Shown in pieces: positions 892 to 39,005 of a DNA stretch of 64,000 nucleotides. Positions within the stretch are counted from its first letter, which is position 1, and every line of letters starts with the position of its first letter. Location of the stretch: the NCBI GenBank assembly GCA_008632985.1, contig QPGO01000017.1, positions 1 to 64,000 on the forward strand, written 5' to 3'. The notes beneath the pieces were generated by a model. The model was not told where the DNA came from. It saw only the letters and a program-made list of their open reading frames with translations, and ran no database searches. Origin of the DNA: Psammoneis japonica (lineage: Eukaryota). The position numbers and the translations under genes were made by a program.

Positions 892-2834
892 CTGCAAACA
901 AAAAGTAAGAACAGAAAAGTGAGCAGTCATGAGAGTAATGAAATGCAACAAGACAGCAAAACGCATAGGGCCTAATGCATTGTCAGCGTTATGAGTAGCT
1001 GAATCGCTTTTTCCCTGGAGTGCCGAGAAAGTGTTCGCGCCGTTTTCCTACTACTAAATTTGGAATTGGAAAATGAATGATGCAGAAAGAAAAATTTCAA
1101 ATAACATGTAACTATTCATGCTCTATATAGTCTATATTGATCGCAACGGATTCTATCCGAAACACGGGCATCCGACAGACGAAACACGTGGGATAGAAAT
1201 CACCCCAGTTTGGGATAGAAAATATAATGTTTCTGTGAAACCGAGACCGACAGTGAACGAAGTAAGCAAAACCGTTTTCTGATTTCAGGGTTATAAAGAA
1301 GGATTTCAAATCGGACGTGACTGACACACAACTGCTCTGGAAGCGCCACAGAGGTATTGCTTATTTGCCACCGACGCCAATCGAGTCACCAACGTAACGC
1401 CGACACCCGACACCTCACACTCACACTCACACCGATGAACGATGAGCCGCCGCCGCTCAAATTGTGAGCGCGAGCGCGAAAAGCGAAAAGGCCACGCACG
1501 CGATGATGCAGAATGGGCAGTCGGATCAGTCAATCAACATGCGTTAGACTCGTGACTGAGTCATTGAAGGGTGCAATCCACCCTCCAAGCGTCCCAAGTT
1601 GGCCGCACCAATGCTCAGGGAATACATTGCCAAGCTAGACCCGTCACGAAGCAACAGCCACACCAATCGTGGAGTCACATTTTTGCCGGATGTCAAGGTC
1701 GTGAAAAAAGTGGCAAAGAACAGTGGAGCTCCCACTTGGAGAGAAAGCCTCACCGTGGCTGACGAAAGTTCATTGTCAACCTTGCTCTTGACTTGAACTG
1801 TGACTTGCCTGACCACAATCACAAGCTTCTCATGGAGGAACACAAGATTGATCACGCAGATCATTGTCACCATGAGCGGGATGACCAGGCCCGTTTGGAA
1901 GCATTTCGTTTGCATGGGAACAAGGAACATTGCACAAAAGGCACTGTGTGAACACACACATGACATGCCAAATTTTGAATTGCCTGCCTTGGTCATTTTT
2001 GGGTTGGGATTGGGGTGCCATTGACTCTTGACCAAAGAGCTGGCTGTCACTCTGTTTTTGAGGCAATCAACAACAAACATTTGAGCACCAGCTGTTTTTG
2101 TCGTTCAACTGTTCGTCCCTCACATGTGGACAATGTGGTGTGTTGGGGCACTTGTTTTCCATTGAGATGATGGGTTTTTGGGTGTTGTGGTTTTGGTGTG
2201 CACAAGCTTGCTTTCAAACTGGCGATCATGCATGGACAACTCAACCCCCTTTGTTTCTGCACCTGACAAGGACAGTTGCACAATGCAAGCCCAAACAGCT
2301 GCTGTGCTGTTGGGGGGTCAAACCAATGTCTGATGTTCAAAACCTTTGGCAGCAATGCCTCACATTGTCACATGCAGCAGGAGCCTGCCAAGAGCCCTCT
2401 TGGAGCCCTCTTGTGTGCATGAAGTGACCAAGGAACTTGTTCATTCAAGTGACAGGCCCTTTGTTTTCCTGCCGCCAAGCTTGTCCTCATTTTTCTGGAG
2501 ACAAAGAGTTGTTTCTTGTTGTCACTCTAGAAAGAACTGCGTGAACCCATTTGTCTCTGCAGTTGGGGTTGATGATGCAACCAGGCTCTCTGTTGTCCTC
2601 CTCCCTGGAGCTTGTGTGCAGTTGTTGCACTGTTGCACAAAACCAGGAGCTGAGTCACAGCCATCCTCCAACCACCAATTCTTGGAGTTTTCTTGTCTGT
2701 GAAACCCATTGCAGGGAGAGGAAAGTTGACAACAAGAAATGTCTCCTTCCTCAGAGCCACACAAAATGGATCCCCCTTGCCTTGCTTTTCCTCATGCCTC
2801 AAGACAATGAACAGCCATCCACCAAAGTGTCCAA

Positions 2835-2896
2835 TCTGTCTGTCTGTCTGTCTGTCTGTTTGTTTGTTTGTCTGTTTGTCTGTTTGTCTGTCTGTC
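2835..2896. repeat. Compound (TCTG)n/(TTTG)n microsatellite
   Basis: Directly visible tetranucleotide run. Confidence 0.95.
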
Positions 2897-3539
2897 CATG
2901 TTGAGTCTTCCCACCACTCACATTGGACCAAATTGTTGGAGCTTGTGGCTCAACAACAAAACAAAACCCAAATTCCATGTTTTGGGTGCTGTTGCACTTC
3001 CATCCTGCAGCTCTGGCAACAAGCTGGCCTGCACCGCCCAGCACACAATTGGCGCAGCAGGGGCACGACCATTGTGTGGCAACCTGTGTCGGCAACCGAT
3101 GCCAGGTGGTGCCATGTTGAAACAACTGGCAATGGCATGAGTGCCTCTCACAGCAAGTTGTTTGGCTTCCTGGATGCTGGACTTAAATGTGGGATGCACC
3201 ATGGTCAACCAATTTTGCAGCCCATGGGTGGAGAGTGAGTCAGGTCGTGCTCATCTGCCGAGTCATCAAACAAAGTGCACCTTGTCTTTTGCCAAGCAGT
3301 CGTGGACTCATGTGCCAAGTGCCACCAAAAAATTCAAAAACTTACATCATCATGAGCAAGCAAAGCAGATTTTGATCATTTTGTGCAAAAAATCAAGCAG
3401 ATTTTTTACTTGTCTCAAGTGGATTTTTGCAGGCAATCTTGGTGCAGTTTGCAAATTGCTCTGGCTGGATGGAAGAGAAAAGAGTGAAGATTCTGACTTG
3501 AAGAACTGAGCAAGGCACCAAAAACCATCTTTTTGACCC

Positions 3540-4960
3540 TTTGAAGATCTGCAAGGAAAACCAGGGAAAACTTTGAGAATGGTGGCCAAGCTTGTCTGCA
3601 GCGCCGCTCCCCAGCCACGTCATTGACACCAGAATGAGAGCAAGAAATTGGCAACTCCAGAGTGAAAGGGCACCCTGATGCAACCAACCAACCCAACAAC
3701 TCCAGGCTGAGGGCATTGAAGGAACCAGAGGAACTCAGGGAACACTTTGAGAATGGCAGTGGAGTGTTGCAAAGCTCATCTGGTGCAGCTGCAGCTGCCA
3801 GTTGCTCAATCTGTGCCAGAGTGAGTCCTGAAACTCGCGATAAACCCATGGTGAAAGAACACCATCATGCAACCAACCAACCCAACAATTTCAAGCTGAG
3901 GGCATTGAAAGTCTCTTGTGGAACCCAAGGAACACTTTGAGAGCAGTGGTCAAGCATTGCAAGGCTCATCTGGTGCAATTGCAGCCACCAGTCACTTCAT
4001 CCATGCCAGAGTGAGAGAGCTGAAATTCCTGACTTCAGAGTGAAAGAATCCCCTTGTGCAAGCAACCAACCCAACAACTGCAAACTCAGGGCATTGAAGA
4101 TCTCCCATGGAACCCAGGGAACAGTGCATGGAGATCACTTCATCTGTGCCACAGTGAGAGAGCTGAAACTCCTGACTCCAGGTTGAAAGGACACTCTCAC
4201 TCAGCCAGCCAACCCAACAGCTGCAAACTCAGGGTGCCAACGATCTCCAATGGAGCCCAGAGAACATGTTGAGCTTGTTGGCAGAGTGTTGCAACAGCAC
4301 TCATCTGGTGCAGCAGCTGCAGCCCCCAGTCACTTCATCCATGCCAGAGTGAGACCTGACATTCCAACTGCTCCAGAGTGAAAGAACAGCCTGGTGCAAC
4401 CAACCAACCCAATGAGTGCAGGCTGAGGGCACTGATGGTTTCCAATGGAACCCTTCAAAACAGCAGTGGAGTGTTGAATCATTGTTGAGCTTGCAAGTTG
4501 ATGTTGCCAAAAGAGAACTGTGCAGGGCTTCCTGTGACACTCATCATGCTTGCCCTGGATGCCATGTTGGCTGTGGTTTGCCTGTTGTCACAGAGTGGAG
4601 TGTGTGCTGACAGATCAATTGGAGATCAACAAACATCGCTTGTTGTTGTTGTTTCACCAGATGATTCACTTCAAAGAGTGAGCACAAAAGGTTGGTGAGA
4701 TTGTGGTCAATGACAAAGGACATTCTTCATGGAACAGTCGTTGATGATCACAACTCCAGAGAGTGAAAGGAAACCATGATGCAGCCAACAAAGACACCAT
4801 CTGCAGACTGAGGATGTGTTGGTGGAGTTGGGTGGAACCCAGGGAACACTGTGAGAAGAGCTGTGGCTGAGCACTGCAAGGCCCATCTGGCATGCACCAG
4901 TTGTGTGGAGCCAAGTTTTTTCATTGCCACCACCCAGCCAGAAGAGAGAGTGAAACTTCA
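3540..4960 (-). repeat. Degenerate ~189-bp (63-codon) tandem repeat, at least 6 copies, probably once coding
   Basis: Anchor AACCCAA at 3690, 3879, 4068, 4211 and 4406, plus a degraded copy near 4780; minus strand reads ALSLELLGWLVASGCPFTLE. Confidence 0.8.
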
Positions 4961-7900
4961 AGCTCTCCCACAACCCATGTTGTCACAGATGGTGGAGAGT
5001 CATCAAACAATGTGATGGGACAAATCAAACATGCCCCAGATGGTCATCCACATTGCCAAGCTGAGCAAGGGACAAAATTGAAGGTCATCCTGGGCTTGCT
5101 TCCACCATTTCCTCATGTTGAGAAAGTTGCAAATGAGCACTTTGGCATGGCTGGACAGCCATGGGATCTTGAACCACCCTTCTTGTGTGGCGCACAACAG
5201 AGAAATGGCACCACAGACATGCACTGGGGGTGGGGGGACCTTGTGGGCCCAACATGCACAGTGGAGTGGAAGGGCTCTGGATGAACAAAATTGGTGCACT
5301 TTGCTTTCACACATCTCAGTGCAGTGGAACAGGACAAAAAATGTGCTTGCAGTTGCTGTCCTTGGCATGTCTGGCCCAAGACAGAAAATGCTTGCACAAG
5401 CTGTGTAAAGATGATGCTTCACTGTCATGACAAACAACTCTTCCTCTGCAGGATCATGACTTGTTGGCAGAGTTTTTTCTTGGAGGCTGGGAGGCTCCAA
5501 AAGCTGGGCTTCTTCCATCTTCTTTTTGATGGTCTTTGAACCCTCAAGCCCTTCCCATGCTGCATGCCAAGAAGATGATCTTGGCGAGTCATGAGCCTGA
5601 CTTGGGGATGGTGACAACTTGTTGCACCATCATTTTGTCACATCGTCTTTCAGAAGAAACATCTGTTGAGTCTTCTGGTGACAATGGTCAGAGAGACGCA
5701 ATCAACTGTTGGTCCAACTTGTCACTCAAACCCAAGTTAGAGATCATCTTGCAGTTCTTTGCATCTTTGGCATGCCTCATTGTCCCCTGCTGCATCTGTC
5801 ATCTTCAGTGCTTTGGCACACAACCTCAAAAGAGGCACGCCCATTAGATGCAGCTGTTGTTTAGCCCACTGCCCAGACCCACCCTCCCTTTTCCTGCACC
5901 TTTGGGTTGACCTTTGTTTCCCAACACATCTCAACTGTGTGAGCAATGGTGCTGGCATGAAGGGCTTCAAATGCTGAGATTAAGGACAAAAAACCAGAGA
6001 AAATTAAGATGCACAGAAGGGGTGTGCAGGAGCCAACTTGAGTGTCAACTTTTTGACCACCCACGCAGCAAAACAGAGTCAGCCTTCTGCAAAGCACCCA
6101 TTGTGACTCTTTCAACGCCAAAGCAAAAAAGGCAAGCTGCACTGACAAACATTGTTTTTGTGACACCACAAGTCCACACCAGTGCTTGATGCTCTGGCAC
6201 ATGGGGATTGCACACAACATCACTGGCATTGAAGACACACTGCCACAGAGTCACTCAACAAGTTGATGGTCATGACAATCACAAGCACAATTTACATGAA
6301 TCTGGCTGCTCATTGGGATGTGAGACACAAAGTCAAAGTTGTTTTCAGGTGGCCGGCAATGACAGCAGTGGTTTTTGTCTTGTTGCAGCACCCTTTGCTG
6401 ACACAGATTGATCATTTCCACTCTCGGAATTGTGCTTTAAGAATGTCCAAGTGAGAACAAATCTTGGATTCATTGCATGATGCAGTGCAGATGCAGTGTG
6501 ATGCATGGAAAACAGAGCCAACTCTGTGAATCATTGAACTTTTTGAAAGACAAGAAATCCAGACATTGTGATGCTCCATTCCAGACACTTGAGCAGTGTC
6601 ACAGTCATCTGGGCATGGAGCAATGGCATCAAAATGGGCATGGGTTCCAAAGCCATCAGCAGACACTGCAAGTTGCAGAGGTTGGATTGACAAGCTTTTG
6701 ACAAGCTTGAACAAACACTTGTCAACATGCAGTTTCGTCTCTGGCAAAACATTGCACATGATGGCACAAACCCTTGTCCACCACAAAAGCAATGTCGGTT
6801 GGAACAAAAGCCACATCACCCAACTCAACTTGATCACCATTCCATTTCAACAGATGAAGCAGGCAAAGCAGTCATTGGCAAAGGAATCCACAGACAACAT
6901 GACAAAAGGAAGCAATGTTGGCGCTCCTTCGAAGCATGCCCGTGACAAATTTTGTAAGCATGACTTTGGCATGTTGAGCAATGACACATGACAACCCAAA
7001 CCATGGACTCCACACAATGCTGCAAACTCCTTCTACTTAATCCAAGTCTGTCAAAGTGTGTCCAAAGCCCATCCAAGTCTAATCTGGCTTCAGGCAATGC
7101 ATTGGTGACAATGGATTGTTTTGTCTGCTTTGACATGGGGTGGGCTAGAGTCTTCTGGGACCTTGCTGTCTGTCTGCAATGCTGACTCTCCCAAGCCCAA
7201 TTGGTGTGTTGGTGTGTGTGGCCCACCAGCAAACTCCACAGTCTGGGTGACAGCTGGGGCAATGACATCTGCCAAGGGACATGGCAATGCTTCTCACATG
7301 CAAGCCGAGTCATTGCAAATCGCAGCCACAATTTCAAGTGGGCAACTCAAAGCCCAGTTCTTGCTCTGCTCCAATTCATTTCAAGTTGACCCATTCAGAC
7401 CACCGGCTCTGACTGGTCTTTTCATTTCATTGATTGAACAATCAAGAGTTGTTGCATCATGAAAAGCAAGATGCATCAAAGGACATCATTGGCACGGTTT
7501 CGTGCAGTGCAATCAAGAATTGAGACCATTGCTTGAAGTGTTGACCATCTCCTTGGTCAGTCATCACAGACTTTTGGCTCAACTTGGCTGTGGATGGCTC
7601 CAAGAGTGTGCTTGATTGCAACAAGGTGGCACCAAACAGCAGCAGAAATGCACTTCTCATCCCCACAATGCTGCTGCAACTGGGGCCTGTGGCAGCACAT
7701 CATGGTGGACCTGTGGCACTGGCCAGCAGGTGAAGGTGAAGAGTGACAAATGTGCGACCTTTGTCACCCCAATCCACCGTCTCACTCAACCGGTCCTGCT
7801 GCCTCAACCGGTCCCGCCGGCTGACCGATGGATGCTTGCTCCACTTGAATTCCAAGTGCCGCTGCTCTGCAGCATCAACCCCACAGCACAATGACAATGC

Positions 7901-9669
7901 AAGATGCCGGCAGTTTGTTCTTCCTGATGGACAAGCGACACAATCATGCCACTGGAGAAAACTGCAATGCCAAGAGTCATGCTGTCACACCTCCAAAGAA
8001 TGACAAAATGCCACAAGTTGTTTTAATGGATTGTCAGGCTTTTCGTCATTGACGGAAAATGCCAAAAATGCCGCTGCGAGTAGAAGGTCACAAATGGACA
8101 ATGCATTCAACAGTTTGCTTGATGCTTCCACAGTTGCTTCATGGATGCAAGACCAGGACAATGTGTTGAAAAACATTCAAAACATTTTGACAAGCAGGAG
8201 GAAAGCAACCAAGCCGAAATTGAAGGAAGCCAACAACCAGCTGGCATTGGTGTGAAACAGCCTCTCCATTTTGCAAGCAACGACAAAAGGAGCAACTGTG
8301 ACTTGAGCTGGGACCCAGAGACAAATGGTGTCCCTCTGCAGCTTTGACAGCTGCTGTCTCACACACATTGTCCTCCAGTGGTGTGAAGCCATCTACAAAT
8401 GGGTCAAAAAGAACAATGAGCTGCATCAGTCTCAGTGCTAAAAGAGGATGTGTTCTCAAGCAGCACTTGCCTTTTTGCACCAAGTCCCAATCAAAAGCAG
8501 TGGCACTCTCCACCAGAGAGTTCATCCCACAACAGTGGAGACTTTTGCACTTGGGCCGGTGCCGGCTCCCTGCTTCTAGCAGAGAGACATCTTTCCTGTG
8601 TCTTAGAACAGCCAATCGGCAAGTCATCATTCAAAATGGTGAAGTGCGCACACACTCTGCAGCACGCATGCGGTGTGCACCGTCCAGAAGCAACAGCACT
8701 TGCACCTGCACTCCATCCCACATGTTTCATCAAACAGTCACACATCTCTGCCAGAACGACTGGGAACTGAGAGCTCCAGGATCTGATTTCCCCACATGGG
8801 CAAAGAATGTCAAAAGATGTCTGTCATGTAGAATGTGGGCCTGGAAATGCCGCTGCAAGTTTTGACAGTCAACGACATTCACACTGGAAAATGACAGGCA
8901 AAATGAAAATGTGAGTGGAACAACGCACACAACAACAATTCATTGGGGTTGCACACAACAGTGTGCTCACTGGGAGCACCTTTTAAAGGCAAAGCTGAGT
9001 TGCCTTGCCAATTTTTATGCTTCCAAGTAACATCAGCGGTTTGTGGCATCTGTGCATTCAAGAGGAGGCAATGCGCCCACCAACACAAGCCTCGACCTTT
9101 CCCATTTTACCCATTGAAAAGCATGGAGTCGCAGTTGCACCACAAAGATCTCCCAAAGTAACATGGACAACATCACATCTTAGACAATGATGACAATGTG
9201 GTTGAAGGGCAGGTGGAAAGGGTCAAAAAGGACCAGATGCCCACAGGCATGATCGAGGCACACCAAAAAAGGCTCCTGACAAGGTGTGCAAGTTTCTCAT
9301 CAAAACGAGTCCAAAACTCAATCAATCACAACATGCTCACAGGGTTGCCTTTTTTGGACTGTGGCAAGGCTGTCTGACAAATGCCAACATTGTGAGTGTC
9401 CCCGAGACTCCATCGCATCATTTTGTTCCCATGGCGTGCACTTTCAAGAAATTGTTTTTGCCAAAAAATGACATGCTGTGACTGCGAGCCAACCAAGACC
9501 TTCGAAAAACATTCAAGCTTGTCACAAGTCCAAAAAACTGCACAAATGGATGAAGCAAAGGATGTGGATTAGGATGAAGCACAAGGCTCCCAAATGGACA
9601 GGCTTTTGTGATGATGATGATGATGTGAAAAAAAACACCCAAATCCATCAAATGAAAATCGACCACATG

Positions 9670-11700
9670 AAATGATGCGCTCACCGTTCAATCTTTGACA
9701 AAGCCCAAATGACCTCCACTCCACCAAATGAGCAAGTCTTGGCAACAACAAATGCCACTTCTGAATCTTCTGCAGCTGACTCCGGATTGCCAACACCATG
9801 GTCACAACCAACTCGCTCTGGTCACAAAATCCAAATGATCCAAAGGGCCATTGAGTCACAACTTCAACATGAACAAAACATTGTCTCACAAGCTGCAACT
9901 GCTTGTAAAGCCATTGCCCAGGACATGTGTCTCATTGACAATGACTGAAATCAACTCCAGAGGATCCCATTTTGCACAGCACCATGTGAAGGCTTCCAAT
10001 GACCCGGACACTTGTACATGCACGAGGCTCTTTGCGAACCAGATGCTCACAAATTCAACAAAGCTGTGGTTGAAGAAGCACAAGACCATGCCGACAGGAA
10101 GCATTGGCAAGCTGCTGAAAAAGCTGATGCACCCCAGGGTGAGACCATTCTTCCTGCAACATGGTCTGTGAAGTGCAAGCAACGCATGGCAACATGCAAA
10201 GTGTGCAAGTGGAAAAGCTGACTCAATTGGGAGGACACAAAATGAAGAAAGGAAAACACTGCAAGGAAACCCATGCTCCAACACTTTCTTGGACTGTTGT
10301 CCATCTGTTCCTCATCCTCTGCATCCTCTTCAAATGGAAATCAAGACAAGTTGATTTTGTGCTGGCATGTCCACAATCCACATGCTGACATTCCAAGGCC
10401 CACCTTTGTGGAATCACCAAGAGACATCAACTTTCCCAGTTTGGATCACAACAAGCATTGCTTGGAGACATTGAAAAATGCATGTGGTGGAAAAGACGCT
10501 GGGTGAATGTGGTTTGCATTTTTACGAGGCATTCTGCTTGACATTGGTTTTACACAGTCTTCATTCAACAAATGTGTTTTCTGCCGTGGTGCGATGACAT
10601 TCCTGGTGTGCACCAATGACGGTCTTACATTCAATCCCTTGGATGCTGAGATTGATCAATGCATCAAAGACCTCGGCACACGCACACACATTTCTGATCA
10701 AGGCAATGTCAGCCACTGCCTCAGCATCAAAATCAACCACAACTTGTTGACAGCATTCTCCAAGACCTTGGTCTCATTGGCACTTGCAACAACTTGAATT
10801 CAAACACTGCCAAAACACACAAGCTCCCAGCAAGCACTGCAAAACTTGTCGGACCCGATCCGGTTGGTGCACCTTTTCAGGAATCATGGAACTGCTGCTC
10901 TGTCATTGGAAAATTGAACTTCTTAGAAAAGTCAACATGCAGTGACATTGCACATGCTGCTCACCAATGCACCCGCTTCATGTCAAATCCAAAAGCTTCT
11001 CATGGCGCCGCTGTCAAGCACATTGGATGACATTTGCTCGCAACCAGAAATGAAGGATGCATCATCAAACCAGACAACACACATGGCCTTGATTGCTTTG
11101 TGGATGCTGATTTTTGTGGCAACTGGGACAAGGCTGTCACAGAAAATTGTCCTGATGCAGCACACTCTCATTCTGGTTTTGCTGTCAAATTTGCAAATGT
11201 GCCCCTGTGTTGGGCTTCCAAGCTGCAAACAATGTTTGCTCTCAGCAGTGCAGAATCTGAATGCATTGCTCTCTCTAAAGCTGCCAGACACGTTAAATCC
11301 ATCATGCACCTGTTGAAAGAACTCAAGGAGAGAAACATGAATGTGAGCGCTGCTCCTGTCATGCATTGCATGATGTTTGAGGACAACTCCACCGCACTGG
11401 AGATTGCACGTGCACCCAAGATGCACCTGACACTCAACACTTCAACGTCATGCTCCACCACCACTTTCACAATGAAGTCGCCAATGGCTGCATCCGAGTT
11501 CAACCCATTTGCACTGCCGATCAACAAGCCGATGTCTTCACAAAACAGCTGCCTGAGGAGACTTTCTACAAGCTCTGTCATTTGCTTTTCAGCTGGTGAA
11601 TGACCCAGCCATCTCATTGAATGATGAGGCACTCCTGGCTTGGGAGGTCTGCAATTGGTGCGGGAAGAAGAGTGCCGGCAAGAGCGAATGAGGGAGTGTG
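9670..11700 (+). mobile_element. Decayed Ty1/copia (CoDi-like) LTR retrotransposon pol, RT-RNaseH portion
   Basis: Motifs DPDTLYMHEAL, ETHAP, RQVDFVLA, FLVCTND (=YxDD), SVIGKLNFL, CFVDADFCGNW, WASKLQT, ALSSAESECIALS, FEDN, QQADVFTK; stop at 11597-11599; PPT-like GAGGGAG then TG at 11690-11698. Confidence 0.92.
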
Positions 11701-11938
11701 ACTGTTGATCTTGTTCATGCCTCACGACATCTATGACATTTGATTTCTATGGCCCCAAATTGTTTGCTCATGTGGCACACAAATTGTTGAAGACATCTCA
11801 AACATTTGTTGGAAAACACTTGTTGAGACATCTCTCTTCTCACCTTTTTGAGATTCAAAGCAATCACAATCAGTTTGTCTGTGTTCATCACAAGGCCAAT
11901 TGTCCGTTTGGTTCTTACTTTAAACTGTTTGCTCACAG

Positions 11939-12170
11939 TTGTTGCACATGATGGGTTGCAAAATGGGTGTGACGATTGGCAGAATGCCAAACAAGTGTCA
12001 CCCAGAAATGGCTGGGGAGGGCATTGAATGTTCTTGGGGACTCGCAAAGCAGCGTTGTTGTTTGCAACCTTTGTCAAGAAAGAGGGGAAAGCAAAACTTT
12101 AGAGAGTTGGTGCAAGAATCAATGTTTTCAACTGCACTCATGATGGACAGAAAAAACGCCCCTGACAGAT
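11939..12170 (+). mobile_element. Fragment of a DDE (IS630/Tc1-mariner-like) transposase
   Basis: KCHPEMAGEGIECSWGLAK...KRGKQNFRELV resembles the PKxHxELAGEGIEYSWG C-terminal catalytic motif. Confidence 0.65.
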
Positions 12171-13044
12171 TGACTGCGATGGCATTGAACAACACACCAA
12201 GCTTTGAACAACTTGTTCAGCACATTGGCAAGCTCAATGAGAGGGAGTCATCATGTCATCGTTGCAGCAACACCACAACAGATTGAGTTGTTCCGACAAG
12301 GCAGCCATGTTGGCACAGGCTTCTGAGGAAATGCAGGCTTTCTCGCCTGGCACTTGCAATGCTTTGAAGATTTCTGAATCAAAGAAGAATGACCTGGCCT
12401 GGAAAACTTGTGAGAAGAAAATGAAAGAAGAACAGAAGGATTCTGTGATGACTGCTTTGCAGCATGCGATTTCCAATTCCGGCAGTGTTCAGGTTGATGT
12501 CAATGGCAGTGTGTCAGGTGGCACCTCACATGTTGCCAGATGTTCTGGTGTCACCTTCATCGCTGGTGAGAATGTCAAGTCCGGAACCACCATCATGGAC
12601 ACAGTAGAAGAGAACTCATCTTTGTCTTCACACAGGAAAAAAAATGGCTGATGACGAAGTGCCGGAGCTGCAAGAGGAAGACTCACTCTACTCTAGAGGA
12701 CCAGAGGGCCCCAGCTGCTGGCTGTTCACACTTTCAACTTCGACCATAACCACCATGCTACCCCTGCCTATTTTCTAGAGAGAGAGCAACTGAATGTATC
12801 ATGGTAAGTTTCTGAAACAGATACACGCCCACAGCAAGGAAGCAGAAACAAAATAAATTGAAAACAGTAGCCTGATTTCAATATCTTGTTTTACTTCTAC
12901 TCGGTCGGGCTGTAGCTATGGTAGCGTTTTCTCTGATTTATCGATCAAGGTCGTTTGAAACAACACCGTTTTTTTTTTAACACATTAACACGTTTAAGAT
13001 ATGATCAGATTAAGAAAGGAGGCGGTAAAGGTTTGATGACCTCA

Positions 13045-14688
13045 TCATTTCCCGCACATAACGGTTAGGATCGACTTTTTCATTACGACAATCAGCTTGT
13101 CAATATCTTTCTTTGTGTGAATTGCAGACACTGTCATTCGCAATGCTGGCGCAGGGATGGTGTGCATGTGGCCTACTACATGTCGACCCGTCGACACCAT
13201 GGCTACTCCGTTCTTCAAACAATCTTTTGCAATTGAGTCGAGAAGGGCAGTGTTTTTGTCATCATCATACACGTCCTTCTCTTCAGGAGATACTTCGAGC
13301 ATGACAATGGGTGACCGGTCGTCACTCACCAGTATCAGAGTGTCTTGCTTTATTGACGCGACCATTGCGGCAAGCTGCTCATACAGGTATCGTTTGTTTT
13401 CGTTGAGCTGCTCAAGAAGTACGGGACGACTTTGAATCTGTTTCAAAGCAGCCATGGCGGCAGATGCAGTGAACGGCGGACAAGAGGCACTGAAACAATA
13501 CCCTGCGCCACTCAGTCTCTGATGATCTACGACTTCCTCATTCCCGACCGTCACTCCCCCAATACTCCCCAAGGAGTTTTCAAGGCTAATGGTAACAATC
13601 TCTGCGTCGTACATGTGCTTCTTTCCGTACAGTTCTAAAACACCACGTCCATTTTTTCCCAGTGTCCCGAATGAGAACGATTCGTCCAGGATAAGTCGGT
13701 AGTTGAATTCATTCTTGAGGTCAACAAGCTCGGACAATGGTACAATAGTTCCAAGATTCTTGTAAAGACCTTCCACAACGATGAAACGTCTCTGGTCACT
13801 GGGTTTTCTACCAAGGCGCTTGTCCGTTGATTTTACAGTCTCTAGCACCCTCCGAAGATCTTCCATATCATTGTGTCGAAACCATTTAACATTGGCGCGA
13901 CTGAGACTAACTCCACTCACAATCGGTTCGTACACCCCCTCGTCAACGACGAGCAGATCGCCACGTTTAGCAAAAGCTGCAATCGTCGACGTCACAGTAG
14001 ATGCACCGTCCGAGTACATGATAGCTCCCTCTGTCTCTGTAAATTTCGATATTGCTTCCTCGAGCTGCAGATGCACATCGATAGTTCCATAAAAGCCCCG
14101 AGGACCGCACGATCCGCATCCATACGTTGATAGAGCCTCCTGTGATGCATCCTTGATGTATTTGCCAGGTCCATCCTTTTCATCAGCAAGACTAGTGCAC
14201 GACATACCTAGGAAATCGTGCGTGGCAAAGTTCAGCACAGTGCGTTTCTTCTTGGATCCATCGCAATCTTGTATCGTCATGGTCCGTCCGTTAAGCTCAT
14301 GAACAATAACGTTGGAACCCAGATGTGGAATTTGTGCCGCCTCCTGCTCCTGTGGCACCAGTCTTTTCCGACCACGCTCACGCCATTCCTCAATGAGTTC
14401 CTCCTTTTCGGCCTCGGTCAATTTTTCTCTTTTGTCGCCTCTCCATTCCTTGCTCTGACTCACAATAATGTAGATGATTGACAGAATTAGCGTTGTCTCG
14501 ATAAACACGTGAACTGGATCGTTGGTTACGAGGTTCAACCACCAGTTCTTATAGAGCGAAGGAATATTCGCGACAGAACGCCACATTTCAGAAACAGGTG
14601 GAAGATCAGGCACGGTGTGATTTGAAAGCAGCTTCTGGACGGTTTGACCGGCGCTGTACCCCAGTGAATAGATGTTAGGAAGTAACAT
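13045..14688 (-). CDS. LCB1: Serine palmitoyltransferase subunit 1 (LCB1/SPTLC1)
   Basis: 547-aa ORF; N-terminal TM segment; YGCGSCGPRGFYGTIDVHL; LILDESFSFG; ISLENSLG lacks the PLP lysine, as expected for LCB1. Confidence 0.93.
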   Translation of the reverse strand: MLLPNIYSLGYSAGQTVQKLLSNHTVPDLPPVSEMWRSVANIPSLYKNWWLNLVTNDPVHVFIETTLILSIIYIIVSQSKEWRGDKREKLTEAEKEELIEEWRERGRKRLVPQEQEAAQIPHLGSNVIVHELNGRTMTIQDCDGSKKKRTVLNFATHDFLGMSCTSLADEKDGPGKYIKDASQEALSTYGCGSCGPRGFYGTIDVHLQLEEAISKFTETEGAIMYSDGASTVTSTIAAFAKRGDLLVVDEGVYEPIVSGVSLSRANVKWFRHNDMEDLRRVLETVKSTDKRLGRKPSDQRRFIVVEGLYKNLGTIVPLSELVDLKNEFNYRLILDESFSFGTLGKNGRGVLELYGKKHMYDAEIVTISLENSLGSIGGVTVGNEEVVDHQRLSGAGYCFSASCPPFTASAAMAALKQIQSRPVLLEQLNENKRYLYEQLAAMVASIKQDTLILVSDDRSPIVMLEVSPEEKDVYDDDKNTALLDSIAKDCLKNGVAMVSTGRHVVGHMHTIPAPALRMTVSAIHTKKDIDKLIVVMKKSILTVMCGK

Positions 14689-15129
14689 GACAATGTCGCG
14701 ACAGAGAAAAGAAATGGCACGTGCTTCCAGGATTACGCCGCAACGGCAACCGACTATTGAACAAAAAGGATGGGAATTGCTTCCTTAAGCCACCTTCAAA
14801 GGCACTCAGTATGGCAATGCTGGGTGCTGAAGATAGCCGTCACCCGTCACCGTCAGTCACCTTTGCACGGGGCTTTTTGACGGAATTCACGTGCAACGTC
14901 ACCTAGAGTGGCGCGGGGGGAGGGGCAGACGCGGAGCAAGGGCGGAACTAACTGAGTCATGCAGGTAGGAAAAGGGATGGATTTCGAGTTGGGGTTGGAG
15001 AGTTGGGATTGTAGTTTGGTGGAGTAGCGGGTCAATTGGTCAGCGAGTGATTTAGTGATTGCAAGGCTCAGGCTTTGGAGACCCCCCACTGTGATGGGGT
15101 GGAAGCGTGGTGGGTCAAGTGTCATCCAT

Positions 15130-30946: not shown

Positions 30947-32469
30947 CTAAAAAAGTGTCGCTATCTCTCAGGGAGACGAGCAGAAATAACAGCGTTCAAA
31001 AGCCCTTGTAGATTTCGTCATACTTGTCCTCCACAGCTTGGAAAATTGCATCAAAAACGCCAGCATGACACGACGCTGCTCAGCCTTGATCCCACATTCT
31101 TGACATGAGTTCCCATGCGGTCCTTCCTGTCACCAGTTTGCCAATCACTTGGCCACGAGTTGTTTCCGATTGTGGTGCTGATTGCTGGAGTGCGCAATTC
31201 GGTCTCTCTAAAACTTTGTTTGGATGGTTGCATTTGCCCATGGATGCAAAAAACAGCTTGGCAATTTCCACTGCAATGTGATTGCCCTTGCACTCCATGA
31301 CAACAAATGAGTGCTCGTGGCACTCTCTGTCCAGTTTGGTCATGCTGCTGCTGCTGCAACTGCCAATGAAGAGGATGTTCTTGTCTTGTGCTGGCAAAGT
31401 TGTTCATCCACAGGTGTCTTGCAGATGGCACGTGGGACAATTGCAAGGAGCAGCCAAACAGTGAACTGGGGTGCATGGAATCACATCCAAATCAGCACCC
31501 CAGGTTGACTTGTCACCCAGCTGCAGTGAACACAAATGTGGACAATGATGGTGACAAGGGTGCAACAAACTGCCAAGCATGTGACACGTGGTTGACAGCT
31601 GCGTTCTTTGCTTGCAGCAAAACACTTGTGTTGGCATTGCTGCATTTGCACCAAACAACTCATTTTTGAACAACAGCTGGTGTTTTGTGCAACAATCTTT
31701 TGAAAAATTCAAGCTGGCAACTCTGAACAGCAGCGGCTCCAGCTGGGTGCCCACAGCCACCATGAAAATGGCGTGTTGGCGCCACAGAAAAATTCTTGGG
31801 AGCCACTCCACACTTGGCATTTGCTGCACATTCAGGTGTCACTGCATGCGGTCATGGCACCAAACACACTGGCAGACAAGCCCTGGCAAACAATGTGAGG
31901 TTGCCCTTGCTGGCGGGTGCAGTTGTGCGGTGTGACACTGGGTGAACCCAGCGCCATGGTCGTCAAAAAACAGAAAAAGCTCAACACCCCAAATCAAATC
32001 TCAAGCACAGTGCAGAGAAGATCCAAGCTCAAATTGGGCATCTCCTGCCTCCCACAGCATCAGCCCCTCCATCCTCTCCAAAGCCCAATGGCGCGAGCCT
32101 TTCTCCCATTTTTCCCTGCATGCCCAGCTGCCAGCCCATGTTTTCCAGCTCCACGAAGTTGTCAAAATGGCTTGCAGCTTGGCTTGCAGCCTTGCTTTCA
32201 GAGCTGGCTGCGGAGCTTGGCTCAAACAAAAACAGCAAGATGTGCAAAAAAGCCAGGAGCTGGGCACCGGAAGCCCCCAGAATCAAAAGATGACGCGCAG
32301 CAGTTCAACATCACACCCAAGACTTCCAGGCAAGGGAAAATTTTTTTGGTTCCAGTTTTTGTTCCGCAGTTGGTTCCAGTTGGGCAGGATTGTGTGGTGT
32401 GAGAACAATGCAATGCATGAGCAACTGCTGCAGTCTCTGCTCTCTGCTGTGGCCACTCTAGCACCGCTG

Positions 32470-32838
32470 GTTGGTCATCCGCACAAATGCCACATTTGCC
32501 CCAAATGTGGCACGAACATGGCATTTTGATCCCAAACGCCACCACTGTTTTTCCAATGATCCCTGGTTGTTTTGCCGTTGACAGCAAAGCGTTAAACACC
32601 GCAGGGCGTGGGGGCTCATTGTTAACACAAGGGAAAAGCGATCGGAAGAAGCATTGGAAGGCTTCTGAACACATGAGAAATGAGTTCGGTGGCAGTCGGG
32701 GGCCACGAATCAATCGCCGGCACGCTTTTTCACGCGCAAAATGTGGCATTTTATGTGGCATTGCGTAGAATCAGCACCAGTTTTGCCGTAGAAAGAAATG
32801 CCATATGTGGCATTGTGGCATTTGTGTGGATAACCAAC
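32470..32838. mobile_element. MITE, ~370 bp, 25-bp imperfect TIRs, subterminal ATGCCACA/TGTGGCAT motifs
   Basis: Left GTTGGTCATCCGCACAAATGCCACA versus right (revcomp) GTTGGTTATCCACACAAATGCCACA; TG on both flanks. Confidence 0.8.
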
Positions 32839-33979
32839 TGGGTCTCTAGAGAGCAGTGGCCCTGCACTGGGCATTTTTTTACCTGGTGTGGGCAGCAGGT
32901 TTTGATTAACTCGACTCGAGCGAAGCGAGAGTCAACTCGCAAAAGTAACCCGGATGTCAAAGTGGGGAGAACAAACAACTCTGCACAAGCACCCATCACC
33001 AAAGGCATCTCCTCTCAAAAGGACAAGGAACAACATTTGAAGCAAAGTGCAACATGCAGACAAGGAGCTTGTGCCAAAACAGAGTGTCTGGCCACAGCAC
33101 CAGTGGCTGCAACAAAAGGCAAAGCAGCAACAAGAGGCAAAAAAGATGCACAGAGAGCCAGAGGAAGAGGGGCAAGAGCCGGGGTGCAGAGAGGAGAGTG
33201 GTGTGTGCTGTGCACTTAAGAACTGGGTGGAAGGGGTGAACAAAATGCCAAAAAGGGAAAATTGTGAGACTGTTTTGGGCACCAAAAGCAAGCAGCAGTT
33301 GAGAGATGCTCTGCAGCGTGTTGTGCTGTGACCCAGCAGCAAGAGAGCTGGCTGCTGCCCCCCAGCTGGCCCCAGCCAAGAAGGCCGAAGGTTGTCCGCA
33401 GCCAAGCAGCACCCCACAAAGTGTTTTCAATGCCATTTTGGGGTGTGTGACAGCTGCGCCAGTTGAGATTTGCCCCACAATTTGGTGTAAAAACAAAGTG
33501 TGGCGTGCAGACAAGGAGAGTTTGTGCAGAACCAGTGTGTCCAGCTGCAGCTCTGATGGCTGCAAGAGGCAAAGCAAAAGAAGCCAGGATGGCACCACAT
33601 GCCAGCTCTCACAGAGAGCCCTGCTGCATGCTGCATCTTGAAGAAACAGGTGGAAGGGATGAACAAGATGCCAAAAGAGAAACTTGTGAGACGGCTTTGG
33701 GTGCCAAAAGCACAAGCAGCTGAGATGCTCTACACAGCACAACCCAGCAAGAGCTCATTGCCACCACAGCAAGCCAGCTGAGAAACTCTGCATGTTGTCC
33801 ATGACCAAGCAACACCTTGCAAACTGCAAAGTGTTCTCAGCACCACTTTGGGGTTTGGCCCAGTTGTTGTTGAGAGCTGCCTCACAAAGAACTGCTGCTT
33901 TGATGCTTGTTGCAGATCTGGAAAATCATCTCTTTGCAGCTTTGGCAAGGAGCTCCCCAGCATGATGATCATGAACAAA

Positions 33980-33985
33980 AGCAGC

Positions 33986-34021
<36 letters not shown>
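33980..34021. repeat. (CAG)n microsatellite
   Basis: Direct observation, ~14 units with one CGG variant. Confidence 0.95.
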
Positions 34022-34023
<2 letters not shown>

Positions 34024-34495
34024 AAAAGCAGTGCTCTGTGTGTTGGAGCAGCAAGAAGCCAGAGCAACAACAAAAAGAAAAGACAAAAAGCACAGACAAG
34101 TTCGCAGGCATGCAGCATCTGAGGTGGCCAGAAATGATCTCCAGCACATGCCAAAGCCCAAGGTGAGCAGCAGCAGAAAGCAGAAGCAGGGCAAGGAAAC
34201 AAAGGCTTGCTTTTGTGAGGATGGCATGAGCAAAGTCAAGAAGCCACAGCGCCAAGCTTTTCGGATGAATTGCACAATTTTTGTTAAGAAATCAAAAACA
34301 AACAGGAAAATCGGCGAAAGCGTCATTGAGACATCATGCCGTAAAGTGAGACACCGGCGGCACGCATCATTGTGGTGCTGCAGTTTGTTGCGTGGTGCCT
34401 GCGAAGCATGCATATATTCATCGATGTATGTCGGTGATCCAAACTGAAAATTGACCCATTACCTTTCTGTCTTTCTTCATAATTGTGGATGTCAC

Positions 34496-34652
34496 TTTAT
34501 AGCGTACATAGGGGAGATTTGTAGCGTACATAGAAGCAGAATGACCCTATAACGTCAGCAGCTCTTTATGTACGCTATAAACTTTATAGCGTACATAGGG
34601 CTACTTACTTAAAGGATGACCGTCTGCGTCAGCAACGTCGTTATGTACGCTA
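34496..34652. repeat. Array of five TAGCGTACATA 11-mers (3 forward, 2 reverse), including a 31-bp hairpin
   Basis: Copies at 34500, 34522, 34587 (+) and 34567, 34642 (-); TATGTACGCTATAAA-C-TTTATAGCGTACATA at 34567-34597. Confidence 0.9.
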
Positions 34653-34778
34653 ACCCACACCATTTGACGACCTGCCCTGCACTGCCATCAAAGCACCACG
34701 CACACTCAAAAACAAGCAAGGCAAGCGAGGCGGGCGCGCAATCGTCAATCAATTACGCAGCCGCCTAAAACAAATACG

Positions 34779-34850
34779 TGCCTGGTCGGAGAATCGAACT
34801 CCGGTCAATGCAACCACAATGCATTATACTAACCACTGTACGAACCAAGC
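34779..34850 (-). tRNA. tRNA-His (GUG)
   Basis: Cloverleaf: acceptor GCTTGGT/ACCAGGC, D arm GTAC-AGTGGTTA-GTAT, anticodon arm ATGCA-TTGTGGT-TGCAT, T arm CGGAG-TTCGATT-CTCCG; T-run downstream. Confidence 0.95.
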
Positions 34851-36450
34851 CGGCATCGTACGCGTCAAATGATTATTTAACTGCTGTTCAAAAAGACGAA
34901 AAGCTGCGAAGCGAACTCACGTGCTGCACCGTACAAATGCACGTGTTCTTCATGCCGCCGATTGAACGCGGTCATGCATGCCACAAAACCTGAGCGAGGG
35001 AAGTGTGGTGCAGACATGCCCACAATCAAAGAACACTGTGGGTCGACAATTTTGCCTTGGCCAGATGATCAAGCTCTGGCCAATGCAACCAAAGCACATT
35101 GTGCCAGCAGCCAGGACTGCACTGGCCAAGCCAGTGACTGGCTGTGTGCTGGTCAGAGCTGAGCTCAAAAAGGCTCTGCCAGATTTTGTCGCTTGGGCAA
35201 GCTGCCGGTGCTCAAAGCTGCCAAAGCAATGGCTGTGCAGAGAGAAGTTTGAGTGCGCTCTGCACATTGTTGCACAAATGCATGAGTGCATGTCAGGATG
35301 CTCACGCTGTTGGAGAAAATGTGTGGCGCACAAGCCAAGACCTCGCAGCTCAGCTGGGGACTCAATTTGGGCAAACAAGTGGGATGACATCACAAGGAAA
35401 GCATGCTTTTGAGGGCTGGCCACCATCGAGGGCTGCATGTGATCATGAAAAATGTTGGGTTGGACTCTGGTGCCCCAGCTTTGTTGCAGACAACAAAGCA
35501 CAGCTCAGAATCATGGTGACGCCGCTGTGACTCTGAGCCACTCTTGAGCAAACAATTCCTCCACAGCTGCAACAAAAAAAGCTGAATGCACCGTTTTCTG
35601 CTCCAACACAGCAAGAAGCTTGGTGAGAGCTTTTGCCATGTCCGCCCCAGTGTGTGCAATGAGGTGGTCACCCCACGCCATTTTCAAGTGCAGCAGTCAA
35701 CAGCCAACAGCCACTTTCTTCTCAGCTGCCATTCCTGTCAAAGAGCTGACTTTCTCTTGGTCAAATGTTGGCTCCCTCAACTTGCTTTTCATCTCCAAGT
35801 TTGAGCTTGTCAACTTGGATGAAACTGCAAGAAGAGGAAATGCACAAACTCTGATGATTGACAGAGTGCTGCAACACTCTTGGGCTTGATTTTGTCAAGT
35901 GGCAGAGATCACTTGTTTTGAAAAAGCAGGTCAATCTGAAACAAGCAATGCTGAAACCAGCATGCCTTGCATCACATGCAAGCAGCTCTTGTTGCACATG
36001 GTGGATTTGATTGGGGGGAGACTGATCTGTTGTGTTGGAAATGAAGCTGCAACAAGAGGCAGCACACTCCCCATCACCCCCCCCCCCCCTGCATGGCGCT
36101 TTGCTGCAACAGCCCCAACACACCTCTTCTTGCTCTTGTTGATGGCAAACAATCTCATTGGGGTTAAGTGTGCTGCCCCACAAAATCAAGTCATCCTTGA
36201 CATTTTTTGAAAAGTCCACAGAAACACAACTGTCTTGGGCATCTGTGCTCTGTGCAGCTCTTCCAACTCTGCAACTGTGGCACAAACTTCAGCTTTCTGC
36301 ATGCCCTTGCAGCCACAAGTTTCTTCAAAGGGCTGAGCCACTTTGCCATGGATGCAAAAGAGATCTGTTGTCTGTGTTGATGTCAAGCCCCGGTGCCATG
36401 ATGGCACAAAAAAGAGCACATTTTGATGTGGTGGTGTGGTGCCTTTTGTG

Positions 36451-36471
36451 CCCCCCCCCCCCCCCCCCCCC
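36451..36471. repeat. Poly(C) tract, 21 nt
   Basis: Direct observation. Confidence 0.95.
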
Positions 36472-36799
36472 TCCTGCCAGCGATGTTTCCTCCTGGTGCA
36501 AATGTCAAACAATGTGGTCTTTTCCATTCATCATGGTGTGGACAAAGACATGTTGTTGGAACATTGGGGTGTGAGGTGGTTTTTGCAGGACAGACAGACA
36601 GTGTTGCAGTGAAAGGCGTGCTGATGACTGTTGATGATGTGGTCGTGAATTTACATTCACAATTCACAGCCGATGATCAGCTTTGGGTGTTTTGCTCACT
36701 TTTTAGCTTCTGCACCCAGTTGACATGGCAATGACATTGACAGCATTGGAGCTGTGTTTGTGATTCATGTGGAGAGTTTGGGGGTTGGTGAGACTGAGC

Positions 36800-37900
36800 A
36801 TGTGCCAGTTCTTTTGGCAAGCAACAAAACTCCAACACAGAAGCTGAAAAGGCTTGCTGGGGAGTCATCAAGAATCCAGAGGTGTGTGGCTTGTGTCAGT
36901 GGATTGTGGCAAACAAGCTGGCTGGATAAAGGAAAGAGACAGTTCCTGGAGGACCTTGCTGCAGACAAGTGTGAGAGCACAGTGGATTTCTTGAAGGAGC
37001 AGGTGCATGGTGCCATTGCCAAAAGTTGGGTTGACAGGCAGAAGGGCACAAAGACCACAAGGAAAACAAGGGAGCATGGTGAAACAGTGTTTGGGGGCCA
37101 GAGTTGCAGGCACTGGCATCTCTGATGCTGGAGCACAAACTGGAAGAGCCAGAATGTCCATCGGGTGCAACCATGTTGGAGAAGGACAAGGCAATCTGGG
37201 GGAAGCAATGCAATCCCTGTGTGAAACAGGGTGCAATCTGCAAGATGCAGAAGGTGAGGGCATTCAGTGCAATTGTGGGACAGTGCACCAAGGCCATCCA
37301 ACACAAGGTTGAAGGAGTGGCAGAGTTTGTGGATGTGGTGGCACCATTGGAAATTCTCAAGTTGTTGATCTTCTTGTTCAATGCAAACGGGAGAGTCTGC
37401 TCACAGGCACAGGCAGTTGAGGCTTGGAAGCACTTGGCACTCATTTATCAAGGTGAAGGAGAGGCACTTCAACATTGCTGCAATTGGCTCACAAATGTTG
37501 TTGAGATGGTGGAGCAAGGGTCCTGTGGCATGGCAGGATTTTTCCCATCCAGAAGAAATTGCCCAGGAGAAAGAGGGCGGGTCAATCAACACAGATGATG
37601 ACAGCTGACAATGCCCAGAAAAAAGAAAGGAACAAGTTGTCAGCGGCACTGCCAATGGAAGGTGCCAAGGAACATTGGCGCATCTTGGAAGACCTGTGCC
37701 AGTCATCCACACTGGGGATTCACAGCTGCTCCAAGCCAATTCGGCCAAGGAGACACTGCAGGTGTTGGACACAGGCAAGGCCAACAAAAACCCTGAGGGC
37801 ACAAGTTTTTCACAAAACAAGAAGAAACATCTTGAATGCTGGAAATGCAACAAGGTTTGGCATGTGAAGAAAGGCTGTCCTTTGTTCAATGATGACGATG
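36800..37900 (+). mobile_element. Decayed LTR-retrotransposon gag with CCHC zinc knuckle
   Basis: CWKCNKVWHVKKGC (CX2CX4HX4C) at 37837-37878; upstream AFSAIVGQCTKAI and IYQGEGEALQHCCN resemble diatom copia gag. Confidence 0.7.
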
Positions 37901-39005
37901 ATCATCCATCGGTGGAGTCAGATCACAATGTGTTGGCACCACGGGGATCAATGAGGAGGCAGTTGACACCATGTTGGATGGCATGGATTCCAGCTGGCAT
38001 CATCCTTTGGTCAGTGTGCATGAGGCCAATCAATTGATGGCTTGTGCAAAGGAGTGTGTTGGAACATCATGGTGCGATGCAGCTTTCACAGGACAGACAC
38101 AGACAAAGTTCTTGCGGCAAAGGATGCACTGACAACTGTTGATGACGTGTTGAATTTGCACTTGCAGCTGATGATTGGTTGTGGGTCTTGTGCTCGCTTT
38201 TTAGCTTGCGCATCCGGTTGACACAGCAATGGTGACAATGGCGCTCAAAATGTGTTCGCAGCCCAGAGCATGCCGTGAGTTCAGGGGGGTCAATGAGACC
38301 AAGCAGGGAGACCAAGTGTGCATCAGCCGGCAAGCCGTGAAATTCCAACACACATTGTCTGATGCATTTTTGAAGGTTCTTGTCCACACTGAATGTTTCA
38401 GATGGCACACCTCGCCCCCAAGAACGTCCATTGCTTTTGTGTCAAACTTGCAGCGGCTGTCACCGCTTTTCTCGTTTATCCTCGGCAGAGTGATTCAAGC
38501 TAGGAGACAAGACACAATAGGACCAAATCCAATGGGCAGGAGTGGAGATGGCTTTGCTAGCGCTGTAGGAAGCCCTTCTCCCAAACCCAAGCTGGACGGC
38601 AGGTTGCAGAGCAAACACGTGCGAGCAGACTTTGGCTCACGCTTTTTCGAGTGCTTTTGGCGAAAAAAAAAAAAAATTACGCGAAAGCCTCCCCCTTCGC
38701 AATTTGCGCAGGCTTGTGCACTGTGCACTTCACTGCGCAATGTGCAGAGTTAGTGTTGAGTGCGTTGTTCTTCTCCATACTCTCTCGTTTAGTGCCGGTC
38801 TGCAGAAATCCTTAGTAGATGTTCATGGAGGAGGAGGAACTGTGAAAACGACAGTTGTTTTGAGAGGCAAAGCTTCTGAAGAAGGGTATATTCGCTGGTG
38901 TCGTGTCTAACTGTCTAACGCCACTCGGTGTTCCACATACCTACTCCTAGAGTAGGAACATTTTTATTGCGTTGATTGCACTTCCTGCTCACGAATCACG
39001 CGAGA

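Follow-up and report, generated by a model that had tools for sequence, protein, structure and literature searches.

We analysed the first 64,000 nucleotides (forward strand) of contig QPGO01000017.1 in the Psammoneis japonica assembly GCA_008632985.1. This 64-kb stretch is called the window below, and all results refer to it. Beside intact genes and a tRNA gene, it holds four blocks, A to D, that are depleted of CpG and, even more severely, of TpA. These blocks had been described in an earlier inspection of the letters (the original prediction), which proposed that a second mutational process, converting T:A to C:G at TpA, acts there on top of CpG decay. We scored the window in 1-kb bins for dinucleotide density and for the ratio of observed to expected counts (O/E), and took domain limits from likelihood change points, which gave the following four blocks.

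1396..12688, no strand: block A (TA change points 1396 and 12689; CG change points 1908 and 12902)
15054..22025, no strand: block B (TA change points 15054 and 22026; CG change points 15355 and 21880)
31022..34412, no strand: block C (TA change points 31022 and 34413; CG change points 31201 and 34250)
34933..38476, no strand: block D (TA change points 34933 and 38477; CG change points 34996 and 38075)

Dinucleotide composition of the blocks

The 1-kb bins fall into two states. Bins in the low state, at about 2001-12000, 15001-22000, 31001-34000 and 35001-38000, hold 0-8 TA per kb (O/E 0.00-0.12) and 0-18 CG per kb (O/E 0.00-0.34), with CA and TG at O/E 1.5-2.1, and the remaining bins hold 19-78 TA and 35-79 CG per kb. 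The pooled densities for the blocks (23,650 bp) and for the DNA outside them (37,603 bp) are:

TA: blocks 3.4/kb (O/E 0.05); outside 38.6/kb (O/E 0.58)
CG: blocks 11.3/kb (O/E 0.19); outside 59.0/kb (O/E 1.02)
CA: blocks 116.5/kb (O/E 1.76); outside 67.1/kb (O/E 1.11)
TG: blocks 110.5/kb (O/E 1.88); outside 70.5/kb (O/E 1.09)
AA: blocks 90.1/kb (O/E 1.22); outside 71.4/kb (O/E 1.16)

In absolute terms TA drops 11-fold and CG 5-fold in the blocks, and CA plus TG nearly doubles. Depletion of TA by chance is excluded. The sum of the four pyrimidine-purine (YR) steps stays flat (241.7/kb in the blocks vs 235.1/kb outside), and so does G+C (0.484 in block cores vs 0.481 outside), as predicted if CG and TA had turned into TG or CA by transition. 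On the pooled counts AA, AT and the other steps show no depletion.

The blocks differ in degree. Block A holds 46 TA and 134 CG within 1701-12600 (10.9 kb; TA 4.2/kb). Block B, one of the two most depleted, holds 12 TA in 6.35 kb (1.9/kb; TA O/E 0.028, CG O/E 0.106). TA and CG O/E are 0.089 and 0.302 in block C, and 0.025 and 0.164 in block D. The low TA and CG and high CA and TG described in the original prediction are thus real; its manual TA counts (about 4/kb in block A and about 1.5/kb in block B) were close to the computed ones, and its block limits lie a few hundred bases or less from the likelihood change points. CpG decay alone can lower the TpA O/E (Duret and Galtier 2000, as cited in PMC3829696). 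This kind of artefact was rejected here because the absolute TA counts drop.

Public sequencing data agree with the assembled bases. Run X1, which is stored as contigs built from exact 31-mers with a k-mer depth of about 48-63, matches pieces of blocks A and B with 1-9 differing letters per 0.8-2 kb, so that the lack of read support considered in the original prediction does not apply. X1 may be the very sample behind the assembly; it rules out consensus or assembly error and does not amount to independent biological replication. A second run, X2, gave only partial coverage, mostly from paralogues, and a third, X3, had no coverage of the window.

Direction and specificity of the changes

Inside the blocks, TpA has changed to TpG or CpA, and the direction of this change can be read from a dead retrotransposon in block A.

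9697..11656, plus strand: decayed Ty1/copia reverse transcriptase and RNase H, the C-terminal half of the polyprotein (weak Pfam RVT_2 match, homologues)

At E<=1e-5 the relic has 196 homologues. The best of them reach 57-59% identity, and the named relatives come from Nitzschia, Fragilaria, Epithemia and Attheya. It is spread over three frames, and tblastn aligns it to residues about 740-1350 of intact polyproteins of 1,350-1,394 amino acids (aa), with reverse transcriptase followed by RNase H in the Ty1/copia order. No N-terminal match (GAG, protease or integrase) appeared in a tblastn search with 120 polyproteins or fragments, and self-BLAST of the window, which returned few internal repeats, gave no LTR-like match and no pair of long terminal repeats (LTRs) for the relic. 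With neither the upstream half nor LTRs around it, the relic is truncated; with 6 stops, it is also dead. Its translation contains 0.3% Tyr, 5.2% Cys, 5.5% His and 2.9% Arg, compared with 3.6-4.3% Tyr, 1.1-1.4% Cys, 2.7-3.5% His and 6.0-7.0% Arg in four intact relatives.

Polarity was taken from 341 relic codons at which 7 or more of 10 intact homologues share a residue. Conserved codons were used since the relic and the closest metagenome locus share only 65-67% DNA similarity, which is too low for a nucleotide spectrum; the codon evidence is also independent of the sequencing platform. At 16 conserved Tyr columns the relic retains Tyr once and has Cys (TGY) at 6, His (CAY) at 4, Trp at 1 and other residues at 4. 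At 27 conserved Arg columns it retains Arg at 9 and has Cys at 6, His at 4, Gln at 2, a TGA stop at 3 and other residues at 3, so that Arg became TGN 9 times and CAN 6 times. Other residues were retained almost throughout (Pro 20/20, Asn 9/9, Trp 8/9, Cys 5/5). The relic differs at 113 columns; 84 are explained by a single nucleotide step, and 29 require several steps and were left unclassified. The single-step changes comprise 21 TA>TG, 9 TA>CA, 18 CG>CA, 12 CG>TG, 10 other transitions and 14 transversions. The TpA excess that the original prediction expected in a polarised spectrum is thus found: 30 TA-context transitions, equal in number to the 30 CG-context transitions. Paralogues in X1 point the same way, with TA at 11 and CG at 14 sites at which the window has TG or CA and 4 sites opposite, among 40 listed of 1,028 differences (765 transitions and 212 transversions over all). 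Relic codons and paralogues thus show that the ancestor carried TA and that mutation removed it; intact relatives, which might have been equally TA-poor, keep their TA.

The dinucleotide specificity is strict. All 21 A>G changes in the relic follow T, with none after A, C or G, and among the 84 single-step changes only 3 T>C and no A>G lie outside a TA context. The original prediction had considered that the true context might be YpA>YpG. However, none of the 21 conserved His (13) and Gln (8) columns became Arg, Cys, Trp or stop, and no CA>CG occurs among the single-step changes. With these CAN codons almost untouched, CA>CG is not part of the process. The proposal of a second process at TpA on top of CG decay therefore holds within the blocks, while its YpA extension and its suggested DNA polymerase eta (Pol eta) route, discussed below, do not. 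Background change is low: 24 non-TA, non-CG changes over the conserved columns stand against a loss of about 94% of Tyr codons, which would put the TpA rate roughly two orders of magnitude above background.

Survival of TA depends on the flanking letters. Relative to outside density, 0.8-1.4% survives in ATAT, GTAC and ATAC/GTAT, 11% in CTAG and 45% in TTAA. By our own arithmetic these values fit an additive per-strand model in which loss is fastest for TA before a pyrimidine, slower for TAG and slowest for TAA. We do not read this as a clean enzyme footprint, because regeneration of TA would give the same pattern. CG has persisted most in CCGG and GCGC and least in TCGA and ACGT.

Relation to CpG decay

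Decay of 5-methylcytosine would account for half of the picture, as CG is lost (11.3 vs 59.0/kb) with a gain of TG and CA. As an explanation of the whole pattern it fails, since TA>TG/CA makes up 30 of the 84 single-step changes and TA falls from 38.6 to 3.4/kb. The two losses are related in extent: residual TA and CG co-vary (Spearman 0.58, P 0.006, 21 one-kb windows), and, with the densities outside the blocks as the initial state, lnS(TA)/lnS(CG) comes to 1.3-1.7 in five segments, meaning that TA decays somewhat faster than CG.

The two losses can be separated in related elements. Among 79 related Copia loci from metagenomes, picked via conserved peptide motifs and hence biased toward intact copies, TA O/E is 0.35-0.92 (median 0.68) and none is TA-poor, although several have CG O/E of 0.07-0.22 with TA O/E of 0.67-0.92. 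Since these CG-poor relatives keep TA, CpG decay does not entail TA loss, and the TA process appears to be a separate, lineage-restricted feature. Five of the loci (L050, L074, L053, L060 and L075), with CG O/E 0.07-0.15, TA O/E 0.67-0.92 and a lower G+C of 0.40-0.44, look like cases of ordinary methylation-driven CpG decay in other hosts.

The two processes also differ at the block edges. The TA-depleted domain extends 63-512 bp beyond the CG-depleted domain at 7 of 8 boundaries, the exception being the right end of block A; at the left end of that block the CG-depleted core begins only at 1908. This leaves a set of margins.

1396-1907, 15054-15354, 21880-22025, 31022-31200, 34250-34412, 34933-34995 and 38075-38476: TA-poor, CG-holding margins (change points)

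The pooled margins (1,766 bp) have TA O/E 0.08 and CG O/E 0.78, with CA and TG almost at core level, and contain 9 TA vs 68 expected (Poisson P about 2.5e-19, post hoc). Being defined by TA and CG change points, the margins are TA-low and CG-high by construction, and only the consistent direction carries weight. TA-poor margins with near-normal CG imply that the two processes have different footprints.

Strand and timing

Both strands are affected. Compared with 7 relatives, the sense strand of the relic has gained about 30 CA/kb and 48 TG/kb, and a runs test in the four blocks finds no clustering of TG and CA outcomes by strand (z -0.46 to +0.87, like controls). The events look independent, occurring site by site and not processively. 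Their timing was read from two sets of duplicated sequence.

3598..4895, no strand: diverged tandem array with a unit of about 189 bp, in block A (self-comparison, unit alignment)
36480..38300, plus strand: direct repeat pair in block D, 36480-36800 and 37985-38300 (self-BLAST, alignment)

Between the copies of the block D pair, 15 of 51 adjacent double differences are CA vs TG, the next commonest type reaching 4. When units of the tandem array are aligned, TG and CA are mixed in 7 of 26 YR-only column pairs. As the same sites were resolved differently in different copies, mutation took place in DNA after duplication, which argues against editing of RNA or cDNA before integration.

Repeat content of the blocks

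Homology supports a diatom as the host: the best matches of the Pol eta orthologue in the window, at only 51-53% identity, are diatom proteins (e.g. Attheya, Amphora, Ditylum, Chaetoceros). Block A is composite repeat DNA that includes the Copia relic and the tandem array, and parts of it are multi-copy in X1, with a summed depth up to about 2,900 vs about 60 for single copy. At 80% likeness block B has a depth of about 50-78 as far as position 20000 and, to that point, looks single-copy. Six-frame Pfam searches over the four blocks (stops as X) gave the one weak RVT_2 match in block A, and tblastn matches of the 120 Copia polyproteins or fragments were confined to 9697-11656, leaving blocks B-D with no protein match in either search.

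Mechanism and alternative explanations

We consider it likely that these blocks were shaped in place by a genuine mutational process that is specific for TpA and distinct from CpG decay. The blocks would be what remains of transposons and other repeats in the nuclear genome of a diatom, mutated in situ as double-stranded DNA. One process would be CG>TG/CA, presumably via deamination of 5-methylcytosine; the other would be a strictly TpA-specific A:T>G:C change (TA>TG/CA), about 1.3-1.7 times as fast as CpG loss. TpA, like CpG, is self-complementary, and in silenced repeat chromatin a base-modifying activity may mark or attack it and leave a miscoding product. A symmetric mark or recognition at TpA, followed by a miscoding lesion, would give a random choice between TG and CA. 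The outcome would be irreversible, turning Tyr codons into Cys or His and Arg codons into Cys, His, Gln or stop.

As to chemistry, our best guess would be deamination or oxidation of a base at TpA, with two routes ranked highest. Deamination of adenine to hypoxanthine by a deaminase preferring a 5' T is possible, although we hold it doubtful; TadA, ADAT and ADAR enzymes favour a 5' U. Oxidation of the thymine methyl group to 5-hydroxymethyluracil (5hmU) or 5-formyluracil by a TET/JBP-type enzyme, with mispairing to G, seems rather unlikely; 5hmU in dinoflagellates prefers TpA, and 5-formyluracil mispairs with G. What likelihood is left falls to a mechanism not yet imagined or to a passive repair defect. 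That a lineage pathway of defence or heterochromatin chemically targets TpA in repeats, by either a 5'-T DNA adenine deaminase or a TET/JBP-type thymine oxidase, is a serious possibility which we would not yet call probable. If true, it would mean a heritable TpA mark or deamination that erases TpA faster than methyl-CpG decays, the mirror image of repeat-induced point mutation (RIP). No genome-defence system is known to use this reaction.

Several points weigh against a TpA-specific process of this kind. Polarity comes from one 1.96-kb relic in about 23.6 kb of blocks, with homologues only 57-59% identical, and 29 of its 113 differing columns carry no class. Composition alone points to a transposon origin of blocks B-D, and silenced chromatin, like both chemistries, is putative. 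The TA survival pattern can equally be explained by C>T at TC/CC regenerating TA, an overshoot of the TA-depleted domain at only 7 of 8 boundaries makes a weak sign test, and X1 is perhaps the assembly's own data. Moreover, we know of no natural eukaryotic DNA adenine deaminase and of no 5hmU in diatoms, and a literature search for 5-hydroxymethyluracil and diatoms returned, among the matches listed, dinoflagellate papers only.

An improbable alternative is that TA loss is a passive by-product of heterochromatin, in which errors or lesions at the weakly stacked TpA step escape a poor mismatch repair with no enzyme or mark involved. Such a by-product would yield T>C at NTA beside C>T at CpG, and mismatch-repair-deficient tumours indeed show both T>C and CpG C>T signatures. 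The site-autonomous outcomes, random by strand, and the steady ratio to CG loss are also those of clock-like decay. However, the specificity is extreme for a passive process, with 30 TA-context transitions vs 3 T>C and 0 A>G elsewhere, and TpA is lost at a rate above that of CpG decay. In addition, related elements in other diatoms lose CG and keep TA, so repeat chromatin alone is insufficient.

The route suggested in the original prediction, non-canonical mismatch repair, is very unlikely. Here T:G mismatches from 5-methylcytosine deamination would recruit MSH2/6 and Exo1, and gap filling by Pol eta would introduce A>G at WA. TA is lost in and just around CG-depleted DNA, with an overshoot of 63-512 bp as excision tracts might leave, and the organism has a Pol eta gene, which even lies within this window. 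The proximity of that gene to the blocks is a coincidence and lends no support to the idea. AA is part of WA, and during immunoglobulin hypermutation Pol eta mutates AA about half as often as TA; yet the blocks show no depletion of AA (O/E 1.22 vs 1.16 outside), and 0 of 21 A>G changes follow A. Furthermore, TA is lost faster than the CG that would be needed as the trigger.

It is likewise very unlikely that the elements were edited before integration, dead copies being inserted after hyperediting of retrotransposon RNA (ADAR-like A>I) or cDNA (APOBEC-like C>U). Sharp block limits beside intact genes and a tRNA gene would fit such insertions, and one block does contain a retrotransposon relic. 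However, both strands were changed (Tyr>Cys 6 and Tyr>His 4; Arg>TGN 9 and Arg>CAN 6), there are no strand-coherent runs, copies within a block differ as CA vs TG, and the tandem array was hit as well. Base-calling or assembly error at modified bases, foreign DNA or native sequence of unusual composition, or an O/E artefact deserves almost no credence: both lost dinucleotides could bear symmetric modifications and X1 may not be separate data, but X1 contigs reproduce the blocks, absolute TA (and not only O/E) is down 11-fold, the relic codons decayed, with 6 stops, from an ancestor bearing Tyr and Arg, and intact relatives have TA O/E 0.35-0.92. Two further candidates were rejected, UV-type damage as the main cause because A:T>G:C at TpA is seen in place of C>T at dipyrimidines, and GC-biased gene conversion because G+C is flat and AA and AT are not depleted.

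Comparison with known systems

The TpA-specific process invites comparison with RIP in fungi, with which it shares irreversible, dense transitions at a fixed dinucleotide in repeats, on both strands, with genes spared and with stops and missense changes as the outcome. In contrast to the blocks, which lose TpA, gain CpA and TpG and keep a flat G+C, RIP is C:G>T:A, mostly CpA>TpA, and thus makes TpA and lowers G+C. The usual RIP thresholds are a TpA/ApT ratio above 0.89 and a (CpA+TpG)/(ApC+GpT) ratio below 1.03; the blocks give 3.4/54.3 = 0.06 and 227.0/112.8 = 2.0, with no G+C drop. RIP is also confined to duplicated sequence, takes place before meiosis and depends on an enzyme of the RID/DNMT4 type; as to duplication, block A is multi-copy and block B looks single-copy at 80% likeness. 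Methyl-CpG decay of transposons shares the CG>TG/CA half of the pattern (30 of 84 changes) but leaves TpA alone.

ADAR/APOBEC hyperediting also kills retroelements by dense transitions, and the 5' U preference of ADAR-type enzymes resembles TA>TG. However, it acts on one RNA or cDNA strand before integration and leaves strand-biased clusters, whereas in the blocks both strands are changed, without runs and after duplication; strand-asymmetric, clustered, pre-integration changes were not found. The A:T phase of somatic hypermutation (MSH2/6 and Pol eta) shares A>G after T, secondary to cytosine deamination, but its WA>WG context includes AA, whereas in the blocks AA is untouched and 21 of 21 A>G changes follow T. 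A precedent for a eukaryotic enzyme choosing T in TpA is provided by 5hmU in dinoflagellates and base J in kinetoplastid telomeres, and oxidised thymine can mispair with G. As far as we know, mutational erosion of TpA has never been linked to thymine hypermodification.

The known forms of repeat-targeted context hypermutation, namely RIP, methyl-CpG decay and APOBEC editing, are C>T chemistry. We found no described counterpart to domain-restricted A:T>G:C change with near-absolute TpA specificity that proceeds faster than CpG decay, and the chance is considerable that the chemistry behind it belongs to a new category. Among the matches listed in full-text literature searches, none reports TpA erosion in transposons of any organism, in a corpus that mostly leaves out subscription journals, so that absence is unproven. 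The accessible text of Maumus et al. 2009 and Hoguin et al. 2023 makes no mention of TpA erosion; the latter, in that text, describes DNMT4 as present in many diatoms with its function unknown.

Were the process enzymatic, it would point either to a DNA adenine editor that occurs naturally in eukaryotes or to a thymine modification not yet described, in a group that ranks among the major marine primary producers. Either would be of interest for epigenetics, genome evolution and sources of base-editing enzymes. On the practical side, such relics escape homology-based transposon annotation (3 of 4 blocks have no protein match) and, in diatom genomes, would skew methylation proxies that are based on dinucleotides. 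The signature of low TA and CG, high CA and TG and flat G+C can easily be scanned for in any diatom assembly.

Neighbouring genes and other features

The following features lie beside or between the blocks.

13045..14784, minus strand: class I/II aminotransferase, intact open reading frame (ORF), 579 aa (Pfam Aminotran_1_2, E 4.3e-32)
24114-26099, minus strand: DNA polymerase eta orthologue (IMS, PolH/Rev1 HhH, IMS_C and UBM domains)
27987-30946, plus strand: ATP-dependent DNA ligase in two overlapping frames, adjoining the Pol eta gene
34413..34932, no strand: spared island of 520 bp between blocks C and D, with normal TA and CG
34778-34850, minus strand: tRNA-His(GTG) (ARAGORN; Rfam tRNA, 56.7 bits)

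The blocks end close to genes. The original prediction gave distances of 80-400 bp, and these hold: block C starts at 31022, 76 bp from the end of the ligase ORF, and the aminotransferase ORF lies 356 bp from the end of block A (12689) and, at its other end, 270 bp from the start of block B (15054). The bins at 13001-15000, which contain the aminotransferase between blocks A and B, have normal TA (35-38) and CG (57-59). At the change points flanking the spared island, the island side has 74.5-77.9 TA and 64.5-71.4 CG per kb, and short TA-rich repeats lie at about 34460-34651 beside the tRNA-His gene. The island could have arisen either by transposon insertion beside the tRNA gene or by protection through an active Pol III locus.

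Within block C, a less depleted sub-block at 32459-32951 has 12 TA and about 25 CG in 0.5 kb and is rich in words like ATGTGGCAT / ATGCCACAT, which recur in inverted and direct orientation. A younger insertion or an array of binding sites may account for it; in an Rfam search the tRNA was the sole match, with no RNA gene accounting for this sub-block.

TAA and TAG are nearly gone from blocks A-D and TGA is the only stop left, which results in long overlapping ORFs on both strands. ORFs of 208-348 aa without a Pfam match, e.g. 16118-17164 (+) and 15942-16673 (+), could be mistaken for genes by gene callers. Just outside block A, at 169-502, lies a 112-bp tandem repeat in 3 copies with 91% matches, in which CG and TA are normal.

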